Origin: a virus
Taxonomy: Duplodnaviria; Heunggongvirae; Uroviricota; Caudoviricetes
Virus record (IMG/VR): IMGVR_UViG_2778261301_000002
Reading direction: 5' to 3' (one strand)
DNA: 10,268 nucleotides
Shown here piece after piece: positions 7,889 through 10,268 of this stretch. Below the pieces are notes generated by a model that was given only the letters and a program-made list of their open reading frames with translations, had not been told where the DNA came from and ran no database searches. Both the position numbers and the translations under genes were made by a program. How positions within the stretch are numbered: position 1 is the first letter of the stretch; the number at the start of each line of letters is the position of its first letter.

Positions 7889-9732
7889 TGAAAGTAACTG
7901 CAAACGGTAAGACATTTACCTTTCCTGATGGTACGAGCACCGAAGATATTGGCACCGCCATTGATGAGTATTTTGCTGGTCAGGCTGTTCAGCAACAAAC
8001 AGTTAATCAGGCCAATAATGAACCAGCACGTGAAGAGCCATCATTGATGCAACAAGCTGGCGATTGGCTCACTGGTGGTAAAAGTGCAGGGCAAATTGCA
8101 GAACAGGCTGGTCGTGGTCTGGTAAACATACCATTTGACGTATTGCAGGGTGGCGCAAGTCTGATTAATGCAATCAGTCAGGGGCTTGGTGGCCCCAAGG
8201 TTTTGGATGATGTTTATCGTCCAGTAGACAGACCGACAGACCCCTATGCTCAAGCTGGAGAAACAATTGGCGGGTATTTAGTTCCAGGAGTTGGAACGGC
8301 AGGAAGCATGGCTATTGGATCACTGGCAGAGGCCGCAAATCAGAAAGGCGATTTCGCACAAAATGTAGCTAAAAATGCCGGAGTTAACCTTGCTGCTCAG
8401 GGTGTTCTTTCCGCAGCAGCAAAGGGAATAGGTCGTGGAATAACGGCTATAAAAGGCGATATTGCGCCAGAAGTAGCGAAAAAAATTGCCACATCAGAAT
8501 CGATGGGCGTGACACCTATGACATCTGATGTAATCACGCCGAAAAATGCTTTCACTCGTGGCCTTACTCAGGATGCTGAGGGGGCTTTGCTAGGGACAGG
8601 TTCAAAGCGTGCGGAGCAATATGCAACGCGTAGTAAGCTGGTAAGCAATTATTTTGACCGTTTTGGTGAGTACAACCCTGATGATGTGGTGAAATCTCTG
8701 ACTACCACGTTAAGGGGGCGGAAGGATGCCGCTGGCGCTGTTATCAATGACGTCACCAATAAAATGGGTAATGCCGCAGTTGATACCACAAATACCATGA
8801 ATGCTCTGAATACAGCGATCGCAAGACAGGAACGGCTTGGGACGTCTGCCAATCAAAGCCTGCTTACATCCTTGCGTAACCTACGTGAAGAATTAGCAAA
8901 CCCTGCAACTGATTTGGATGTTACGTTTGATCTCTTGCGTCAGCACAGAACAGCATTTAGATCTAATGCTCAGGGAGATGCTATGGTCTTCCCCAACCAG
9001 GCAAAAGCAGCTACCAATATGGTAGAGAATGCAATGTCAAAAGATCTTCGTAACGCAGTTGCAAAAAACCTCGGTGCATCAGACGCAGCAAAATACCTTA
9101 AAGCAAATTCCGATTATGCAAACGTTTATAATAAGGTGCTTAATAAAAACATTGCTAACAAGCTCAACAAGGCAAGCAGTGAAGCCAGTCCTGAACTTAT
9201 AAATGCCGTTGTATTAAGCAGAAAACCATCTGACGTGAAACGAATCTGGAGCGCATTGGATGATAAAGGGAAAGATGCTATGCGTGCAGCTTACGTCAGC
9301 AAAATAGCGGAAAAGGCCGGTGACTCTCCAGCCAAGTTCATCACTGAAGTTAATAAGCTGAAATCTCAGTCAGGCGGTGAAATTTACAACACTATTTTTT
9401 CTGGAAAGCACATGAAAGAGCTTGATGCTCTTCATGAAGTTCTACAGCAAACAGCAAGGTCAGACACCGCAAATGTAGTAACTCAGACGGGGCAATCGCA
9501 AGCCAATAGGATAAGGACGATTGGCGCAACTGCGACTCTTGGCGTATCAATGGGGCTTGAGGCTGGTTTCGGTGCAATGATGCGCTTGTATGAGTCCAAA
9601 GCAGCAAGGAATGCTCTCTTACGTTTGGCAAACACCAAAGCAGGAACACCAGCCTATGAAAGAGCGCTAAATAATGCTGCAAATGCGATACGCCCTATAC
9701 TTTCAAGCCAAATTACAGCAGAACAGCAATAA
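7885..9732 (+). CDS. Ejection (DNA transfer) protein, P22 gp16-like
   Basis: 615-aa ORF (P22 gp16 is about 609 aa). Start ATG 7885 overlaps the gp20-like stop (ATGA); an alternative start is ATG 7888. Last gene of the plus-strand block. Confidence 0.8.
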
Positions 9733-9746
9733 AAGATAAGATATAA

Positions 9747-10232
9747 CTACCTGATATTACTGCTACTGTTGCATGTTACCGTGTTTCCAAAACCTGAATT
9801 GCAGTTTGTATATGTGTCAACGCGTGTTGGGTAAGGTTGAGTTATAACAGGCTGGCGCGCTTTTTGCTCGATCGCTTGCATTGTGTTTACAGCCTGATAA
9901 TTCAATAAAGCCTGCTGGAATGCTTGGCTTTGTGCTATTTGTTGGGCTTGTTCTTGGCTTTGTAATTGAACATAAAGATTCTGAAGCTCAAGTCTTGCCT
10001 GTGCGTCACTTATCTTGCCTTGATCGACACCTTGCCCGAGCATCTTCGCAGCAAGGACATACAGCTTAGGTGTTGGTGCTGATGCCATGCGTGAGTCGTT
10101 CTTCACGCTGGCATCAAGGCAATTAGCCATATCACTAAGCTTTGGATAGCGTTGTTCGCAACTTGCTTGGTAGTCACTTACTTTTGCGCATCCAGCCAGC
10201 AGAAGCGGGACAATTAATAGTGATTTTTTCAT
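9747..10232 (-). CDS. Predicted outer-membrane lipoprotein (accessory gene at the gp16-tailspike junction); function unknown
   Basis: 161-aa minus-strand ORF. N-terminus MKKSLLIVPLLLAGC is a classic signal peptidase II signal: basic n-region, hydrophobic core, lipobox LAGC. The +2 residue is Ala, so by the E. coli sorting rule it goes to the outer membrane. Q-rich predicted helical middle and Cys-containing C-terminus. Convergent with the gp16-like gene, stops 14 nt apart. Confidence 0.75.
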   Translation of the reverse strand: MKKSLLIVPLLLAGCAKVSDYQASCEQRYPKLSDMANCLDASVKNDSRMASAPTPKLYVLAAKMLGQGVDQGKISDAQARLELQNLYVQLQSQEQAQQIAQSQAFQQALLNYQAVNTMQAIEQKARQPVITQPYPTRVDTYTNCNSGFGNTVTCNSSSNIR

Positions 10233-10268
10233 AAAGTTATTTATAAAATCCTTTCTATTATTTATCAG
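10233..10268 (-). promoter_or_regulatory. Candidate sigma70 promoter positioned for a leaderless or near-leaderless lipoprotein transcript
   Basis: On the minus strand: CTGATA (-35-like, 4/6; plus coords 10263-10268), 17-nt spacer, TATAAA (-10-like, 5/6; plus coords 10240-10245), then 7 nt to the ATG. There is no Shine-Dalgarno within 5-10 nt of the start; the only GGA is 16 nt upstream. Confidence 0.3.

Follow-up and report, generated by a model that had tools for sequence, protein, structure and literature searches.

A conserved predicted lipoprotein gene in the sieA position of P22-like prophages, a candidate for superinfection exclusion

In phage P22, gene 16 is followed by sieA, orf59a and mnt, all three on the minus strand, and then by arc, ant and gene 9. 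The slot between gene 16 and mnt has one characterised occupant, SieA. This superinfection exclusion protein, of which types A, B and C are distinguished, prevents P22-like phages from bringing in their DNA and targets the ejection proteins whose genes adjoin its own; it is present in about one third of the P22-like phages sequenced (Leavitt et al. 2024, PMC10883804). The slot, named the 'ant moron', also holds many unrelated cargo genes (PMC2629481), so that function is not fixed by position alone. We describe here a lipoprotein gene found in this slot.

Prophage lipoproteins that protect the envelope are already known, and the present case adds an unrelated family with a new architecture at a well-studied locus. 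The closest analogue for the mechanism we favour is Ltp, a lipoprotein that Streptococcus thermophilus phage TP-J34 expresses as a prophage and that is proposed to stop genome injection by acting on the ejected or conduit proteins of the incoming phage (PMC3952083). It differs from our protein in its Gram-positive host, its surface exposure, its helix-turn-helix repeats and its target, a siphovirus tape-measure protein, and no homology between the two was detected in any search. T5 Llp and the Cor proteins of phi80 and N15 are small phage outer-membrane lipoproteins, some of them with conserved cysteines, that inactivate FhuA and so counter superinfection at the envelope. The protein described here is about twice as large, with a helical domain and a stalk, and is unrelated in sequence; it is encoded in the immI region of a podovirus and not beside tail or receptor-binding genes. 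Lambda Bor confers serum resistance, and TraT of the F plasmid confers surface exclusion and masks OmpA. Like our predicted product, Bor and TraT are outer-membrane lipoprotein cargo of mobile elements, expressed from the lysogen or the plasmid, but their architecture is unlike and no search revealed homology.

The DNA analysed here, called the window, is a stretch of 10,268 nucleotides from IMG/VR virus record IMGVR_UViG_2778261301_000002 and represents the late operon of a P22-like prophage. Three of its genes match the P22 gp7, gp20 and gp16 families, which bears out an earlier interpretation made from the DNA letters (the sequence-only reading) that had placed the locus after the ejection-protein genes (Table 1). 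The gp16-type gene converges with an open reading frame (ORF) of 161 amino acids, and 14 nt separate their stop codons. In the ORF list the translation starts MKKSLLIVPLLLAGC, then AK, and the N-terminus reads MKKSLLIVPLLLAGCAK. The PGAP name of the product is 'lipoprotein', and the protein is near-identical to WP_000749286. A minus-strand lipoprotein gene with a lipobox, four extra cysteines and a Gln-rich helix had been noted before, and all these observations hold. The span 9747-10268 attributed to it requires correction: the gene itself extends to 10232 only, and what remains is intergenic spacer followed by the end of another gene, orf104. We also dropped the idea of an AT-rich setting, because the GC content of the gene (0.449) is only marginally lower than that of the rest of the window (0.483) or of the adjacent gp16 gene (0.461), with no distinct island.

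Table 1. Coordinates of the lipoprotein gene, its protein domains and its neighbours in the window
Feature	Position	Strand	Remarks
gp7-type ejection-protein gene	5777-6472		phrog_598
gp20-type ejection-protein gene	6482-7888		phrog_917
gp16-type DNA-ejection protein gene, 615 aa	7885-9732	+	phrog_770; last of the ejection cluster
Prophage lipoprotein gene, 161 aa	9747-10232	-	phrog_6067; stop 9747-9749, ATG 10230-10232
Pro-rich linker and predicted C-terminal beta-hairpin, C144-x9-C154	9750-9857	-	motif T-N-C...G-N-x-V-x-C-N-S
Predicted Gln-rich helical stalk, about residues 85-125	9858-9980	-	length differs among distant relatives
Predicted N-terminal helical domain, about residues 18-96	9945-10181	-	invariant C25 and C38; KLY motif, A79; pLDDT 87-94
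Predicted signal peptide and lipobox, residues 1-15 (MKKSLLIVPLLLAGC)	10188-10232	-	read from sequence
Intergenic spacer between orf104 and lipoprotein gene, 24 nt	10233-10256	-	no promoter-like or terminator-like site
Last codons and stop of orf104	10257-10268	-	upstream gene, cut by the window edge

The reading frame is clearly a genuine gene. We found 97 clusters of homologues, at 48-97% identity, and comparison of 64 distinct alleles of equal length with the window allele gives a median dN/dS of 0.066; in one pair, for example, dN is 0.019 and dS 0.77. The gene is under strong purifying selection, and its dN/dS and conservation rule out a spurious ORF.

The N-terminus has the layout of a lipoprotein signal, MKK-SLLIVPLL-LAGC, with the lipobox LLAGC, a predicted lipidation site at Cys15, and Ala and Lys at positions +2 and +3. 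The lipobox is present in all 87 full-length homologues, and the eight sequences that lack it are N-terminally truncated fragments. Across homologues the +2 residue is A, V or T and never D. Under the Lol rule, a +2 residue other than Asp directs a lipoprotein to the outer membrane. The lipoprotein call itself is supported by a canonical and conserved lipobox, and sorting to the outer membrane is predicted; the protein most likely faces the periplasm, a topology that we infer. The mature part contains no transmembrane segment (maximum 19-residue hydropathy, 0.47).

Besides the lipobox cysteine at position 15, the protein has cysteines at 25, 38, 144 and 154. In several homologue alignments these four are invariant or nearly so down to 22% identity, a pattern that fits two disulfides and an extracytoplasmic location. 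Residues 84-125 include 14 Gln in 42 positions. An AlphaFold2 model built from a 48-sequence alignment (mean pLDDT 73) predicts a helix at 76-125, with pLDDT dropping from about 78 to about 59. Two strands, at 140-146 and 152-158, are modelled with low confidence (pLDDT about 63-67) and would place C144 and C154 on paired strands.

Although the sequence-only reading could match the protein to no family, a profile search identifies it as a full-length member of phrog_6067 (E 2.6e-109, 161/161 positions), a family that carries no functional annotation; no named or functional family was found. Pfam and PADLOC returned no match, and NCBIfam gave spurious low scores only, to GspK through the Gln-rich helix and to LvhB7 through the signal peptide. 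A sequence-profile search of the PDB produced nothing under E 0.9, and a Foldseek comparison of the model with BFVD and the PDB found nothing significant, generic helical bundles at most. Literature searches, by accession or for a lipoprotein in the sieA slot, retrieved no paper on the protein or on any lipoprotein at this position.

A profile search of 1.84 billion representative proteins retrieved 257 sequences at E <= 1e-3, 96 of them at E <= 1e-10. The N-terminal helical domain is common to the 257. The distant representatives are typically 125-170 aa long with a shorter linker, and they retain the lipobox, Q22, C25, C38, KLY, A79 and a C-terminal C-x7-9-C. None has a Pfam match, and most are unnamed metagenome proteins. 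We could read the genomic context of three. One is surrounded by housekeeping genes (uvrC, uracil-DNA glycosylase, earP and what looks like a biotin-synthesis cluster); another, one of two copies in a Sulfuritalea MAG, has a small-terminase gene beside it in a region resembling a prophage; and the third is convergent with a series of unannotated genes. Judging by such contexts, some of them chromosomal, the domain is older and broader than P22-like phages.

The best matches to bases 9700-10268 (99.3% identity over the 569 compared) are the prophages of E. coli O104:H4 outbreak strains, in which the locus can be followed beyond the window edge. The order in E. coli O104:H4 str. 2011C-3493 is gp16, lipoprotein (-), a 104-aa hypothetical protein (-), an Arc-family, Mnt-like protein (-), Arc (+) and Ant (+), and beyond Ant come the tailspike, an acyltransferase, IntS, tRNA-Arg and yfdC. 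Judged by this gene order, which matches that of P22, the lipoprotein gene occupies precisely the place within immI that sieA has in P22, and the immI-equivalent placement proposed earlier is supported. Because the prophage continues to int and tRNA-Arg, we rejected the possibility that a host housekeeping lipoprotein gene marks the prophage end here.

This placement recurs across hosts. The gene adjoins the gp16 gene in convergent orientation in E. coli, Salmonella, Proteus, Morganella, Yersinia, Xenorhabdus and Serratia. Every context examined places it convergent with gene 16, in the interval that runs from there to the tailspike gene: this holds for phages Gally, vB_EcoP-720R6, VSe13 and Proteus phage Brookers, for prophages of Morganella, Xenorhabdus, Yersinia and Serratia, and for the more diverse IMG/VR loci, all 19 of which encode products 52-97% identical to the window protein. 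Homology of the window to Gally, 720R6 and VSe13 is bounded by the ORF borders (9748-10233), the ORF itself being the unit of exchange. Downstream of alleles that are 96-99% identical we found at least four different gp16 types, and we therefore rejected a pairing of the gene with one gp16 type.

The region upstream is more variable. We sorted its arrangements in 80 close IMG/VR loci (96-99% identity): mnt lies immediately upstream in 34, mnt and P22 orf59a in 18, mnt and a divergent second lipoprotein gene (Gally gp14) in 16, and mnt and orf104, the type of the window, in 10; two could not be classified. In five of eight diverse loci measured, the distance from the mnt stop to the lipoprotein ATG is -4 to +17 nt, which points to an mnt-lipoprotein operon as the usual arrangement. 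In the arrangement of the window, the ATG of orf104 overlaps the mnt stop (ATGA); orf104 encodes a secreted protein of 104 aa with a Sec-type signal peptide that matches phrog_19844. No promoter-like or terminator-like site was detected between mnt and the lipoprotein gene, so that the latter looks part of the mnt operon. The mnt-arc gap holds divergent promoter-like sites, as in P22, and the 14-nt gap to gene 16 leaves no space for a terminator. These observations support the earlier suspicion of a longer minus-strand operon, mnt-orf104-lipoprotein, which extends past the window edge and has this gene as its last.

The relation to sieA is most direct in the orf59a arrangement. In 18 IMG/VR contigs, DNA 97.8% identical to P22 spans mnt, orf59a, the mnt terminator, the annotated sieA promoter and the Shine-Dalgarno sequence (CTAAGGAG), and breaks off about 10 nt before the lipoprotein ATG. 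What follows the Shine-Dalgarno sequence is sieA in P22 and the lipoprotein ORF in these prophages. The sieA promoter segment is present in 19 loci, which correspond to these 18 distinct contigs, and the alignments there reveal an ORF-for-ORF swap of sieA for the lipoprotein gene under the sieA promoter. Mosaic swaps in moron slots are common. The two genes share slot and orientation, convergent with gene 16 and downstream of mnt, their products are of similar size (164 aa for SieA, 161 aa for the lipoprotein), and both are expressed from the prophage. The proteins themselves are different: BLASTP gives no alignment at E <= 100, and the FxRYPxEAxxFNK motif of SieA is absent from the lipoprotein. 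SieA has three hydrophobic segments above 1.6 and is polytopic in the inner membrane, in contrast to our protein with its cleavable lipoprotein signal.

The two also do not occur together in the loci examined. SieA type A has no match among the 80 close lipoprotein loci, and type B (query from E. coli HS1) has none in 181 sequences; these tests covered types A and B. Among phage records, 41 carry sieA and five the lipoprotein gene, with an overlap of zero. Taken with the shared slot and the promoter swap, this firmly supports the lipoprotein gene as an alternative occupant of the sieA slot in P22-like phages. A megablast search with bases 9700-10268 found the gene in 186 of 5,426 complete E. 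coli genomes, always chromosomal, compared with 35 for sieA type A, 21 for type B and 923 for gp10, a marker of P22-like prophages, all of these counts being lower bounds for divergent versions. The lipoprotein gene is thus the commonest of the three slot occupants counted in complete E. coli genomes, about three times as frequent as both tested SieA types combined. Its carriers include strains of medical relevance: the O104:H4 outbreak clone, O26:H11 and adherent-invasive E. coli (AIEC) LF82.

LF82 is a lysogen of Gally, and its gene GALLYPH_13/LF82_138 is an orthologue whose product is 98% identical to the window protein. The reanalysed RNA-seq of this lysogen is that of Misson et al. 2023 (PMC9928086). 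In overnight LB, GALLYPH_13 has 70 normalised reads, 4.5-fold over the prophage median of 15.6, and within the Gally prophage is exceeded by the C2 repressor alone (PMC9928086, S1 Table). The same study set its moron cut-off at 5-fold, that is, 78, and its statement that Gally has no moron is due to this threshold; the gene was thus missed as a moron, just under the cut-off, in the one transcriptome study that covered it (PMC9928086). On the scale of log2(fpkm+5), GALLYPH_13 stands at about 6.1 in LB, 7.9-8.2 in the in-vitro conditions B1 and B6, and 10.3 and 8.6 in macrophages at 1 h and 6 h, whereas the adjacent gp16 gene stays at 3.6-4.2 in all conditions (PMC9928086). GALLYPH_13 being transcribed while gp16 is at background, its prophage transcription is independent of the late operon. 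Two promoter-like sites lie ahead of the lipoprotein gene in Gally, where its upstream neighbour is divergent. The proposal that the gene is independently expressed prophage cargo rather than a part of the virion is supported by these measurements, which were made on the LF82/Gally orthologue.

The lipoprotein probably serves to protect or modify the cell envelope. From position, regulation and location, we hypothesize that the lipoprotein acts in superinfection exclusion, a reading to which we assign a probability of roughly 45%. The gene would be driven by promoters active in the lysogenic state, namely Pmnt where the arrangement is that of the window, a promoter of its own in Gally, and in other arrangements the P22 sieA promoter. 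After export the product would receive its lipid at Cys15 and reach the outer membrane, most likely facing the periplasm with a disulfide-stabilised helical domain, a Gln-rich stalk and a C-terminal hairpin stapled by a disulfide. Incoming P22-like phages would then be stopped at or just after outer-membrane penetration, possibly through interference with assembly of the gp7/gp20/gp16 trans-envelope conduit. The lipoprotein may in this way be the outer-membrane-side counterpart of SieA, which acts at the inner membrane. Exclusion has been demonstrated for SieA, and for the lipoprotein it is a role that we propose. The lack of sequence or fold similarity to any exclusion protein counts against it, and near-identical alleles lie beside at least four gp16 types, which makes a close tie to a single ejection protein less likely.

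A different role in the envelope has also to be considered. The lipoprotein may be fitness or virulence cargo which, like Bor, helps the lysogen withstand serum, macrophages or envelope stress and leaves phages unaffected. Expression of the LF82 orthologue in macrophages at 1 h is about 18-fold its level in LB, and in B1 and B6 it is about 4-fold that level, and a role in host interaction fits this strong induction equally well. The gene is found in the pathogens named above, distant relatives occur in ordinary chromosomal contexts, and the one among housekeeping genes suggests a more general envelope role for the family. However, the induction is not gene-specific, as mnt, the tailspike gene and the rest of the right end of the Gally prophage rise along with it, and the family is also present in P22-like prophages of Xenorhabdus, Pectobacterium and Tatumella, hosts that are not mammalian pathogens. 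Moreover, a fitness role leaves unexplained the replacement of sieA under the sieA promoter and the failure of the two genes to co-occur. We consider this explanation rather unlikely.

Masking of a receptor in the manner of Cor and Llp, as the sequence-only reading had envisaged, or of TraT seems improbable. The lipoprotein would here bind FhuA, OmpA or OmpC and block adsorption or irreversible binding instead of acting on ejection proteins. Sf6-type phages use OmpA or OmpC as secondary receptors, and there are precedents in T5 Llp and phi80 Cor on FhuA and F TraT on OmpA. The predicted outer-membrane location is compatible with such a role, and the independence of the gene from gp16 type fits a host target. 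Our searches provided no supporting evidence: the match to phrog_1119 (Cor) is confined to residues 1-29, the signal peptide (E 0.032), with none in the mature protein, no similarity to Llp was found, no fold match emerged, and the sequence gives no pointer to a particular receptor. A function in the lytic cycle, as a spanin-like lysis component or in the protection of progeny, is hardly credible: against a weak match to the Rz-like spanin family phrog_11621 (E 0.06, residues 5-36 only, which comprise the signal peptide and the first part of the mature protein) stand the location of the gene in the immI region, away from the lysis cassette and oriented against the late operon, and the expression of its orthologue while late genes are silent, which rule out an o-spanin of the Rz1 kind, and Gally and the HS1 prophage encode Rz-type lysis genes of their own at other positions.

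The clean ORF swap under the sieA promoter amounts to a natural experiment, through which the exclusion hypothesis can be tested directly. If the lipoprotein does exclude phages, it would show that the P22 ejection machinery can be blocked by a second route, at the outer membrane, with relevance to phage typing, phage therapy and transduction in the lineages that carry it. More speculatively, and with considerable doubt, the protein may define a new class of exclusion against podoviruses in Gram-negative bacteria, anchored in the outer membrane, blocking the conduit and interchangeable with SieA, with the wider family as a source of defence; the 257-cluster family, partly chromosomal, would then be an envelope-level phage defence absent from defence catalogues. 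Should the lipoprotein not exclude phages, it would still be a conserved putative envelope protein that, as seen with its LF82 orthologue, is induced in macrophages.

Gene 16 and the lipoprotein gene meet at a mosaic junction, which lies within the 14-nt gap separating them. The 3' end of gene 16 (window 9409-9686) is a 92% match to the Salmonella phages Emek and ST-35, both of which are devoid of the lipoprotein gene, whereas the lipoprotein ORF (window 9748-10233) is a 90-95% match to Gally, 720R6 and VSe13, phages whose gp16 differs from that of the window. As to sieA, the gene found at this position in P22, some matches in complete E. coli genomes fall on plasmid records rather than chromosomes (2 of 21 for type B, 1 of 37 for type A); these may represent phage-plasmids or misassigned replicons.

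Directly upstream of the lipoprotein gene lies orf104, whose start overlaps the mnt stop (ATGA). Its 104-aa product carries a Sec signal peptide, with cleavage at about VFA|KP, and matches phrog_19844, a family with no assigned function. The orf104 product is a second exported cargo protein encoded in the same operon as the lipoprotein gene. Elsewhere in the window, the strand opposite the tail-needle and gp14 genes contains a 241-aa ORF, most likely a chance ORF inside coding sequence.

Coordinates of the features described in this section
Feature	Location	Strand	Product	Context
orf104, 3' end	window 10257-10268, continuing in L004 12559-12873	minus		
Antisense ORF	window 4914-5639	minus	241 aa	
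Gally gp14	L001 8620-9039		139-aa lipoprotein (MKRIIGVVAGAILLSGC...)	phage Gally; divergent from lipoprotein gene
P0103	L177 6208-6633		141 aa; distant relative of lipoprotein	metagenome contig
P0274, copy 1	L178 8001-8387		128 aa; distant relative of lipoprotein	Sulfuritalea MAG
P0274, copy 2	L179 8001-8387		128 aa; distant relative of lipoprotein	same MAG

Published expression data are available for the orthologue GALLYPH_13 (LF82_138), in the Gally prophage of E. coli LF82. After the C2 repressor, GALLYPH_13 is the most highly expressed Gally gene in LB, at 4.5-fold over background, and macrophages induce all five rightmost Gally genes, GALLYPH_13 to 17 (PMC9928086 S1 Table). Moron calling in that study used a 5-fold cut-off, hence its conclusion that there is no moron in prophage Gally (PMC9928086). 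Gally-type prophages hold two lipoprotein genes, and the second, Gally gp14, is unrelated to the 161-aa family. This second gene is strongly induced in LF82 outside LB, from a log2 value of about 5.5 in LB to 11.0 after 1 h in macrophages (PMC9928086 S1 Table). Genes of the gp14 type are also present in 16 of 80 IMG/VR loci, and the 720R6 homologue is annotated 'Uncharacterized protein 15'.

More distant members of the family are found in other settings. Both P0274 copies have genes for a small terminase, a DUF4224 protein and a HigB-like toxin next to them, and the surroundings resemble a prophage of another type. The neighbours of P0103 are housekeeping genes (uvrC, uracil-DNA glycosylase, earP and an apparent biotin-synthesis cluster), and no phage genes occur in its neighbourhood on the contig. 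A cellular origin or role is probable for the domain of the lipoprotein family.
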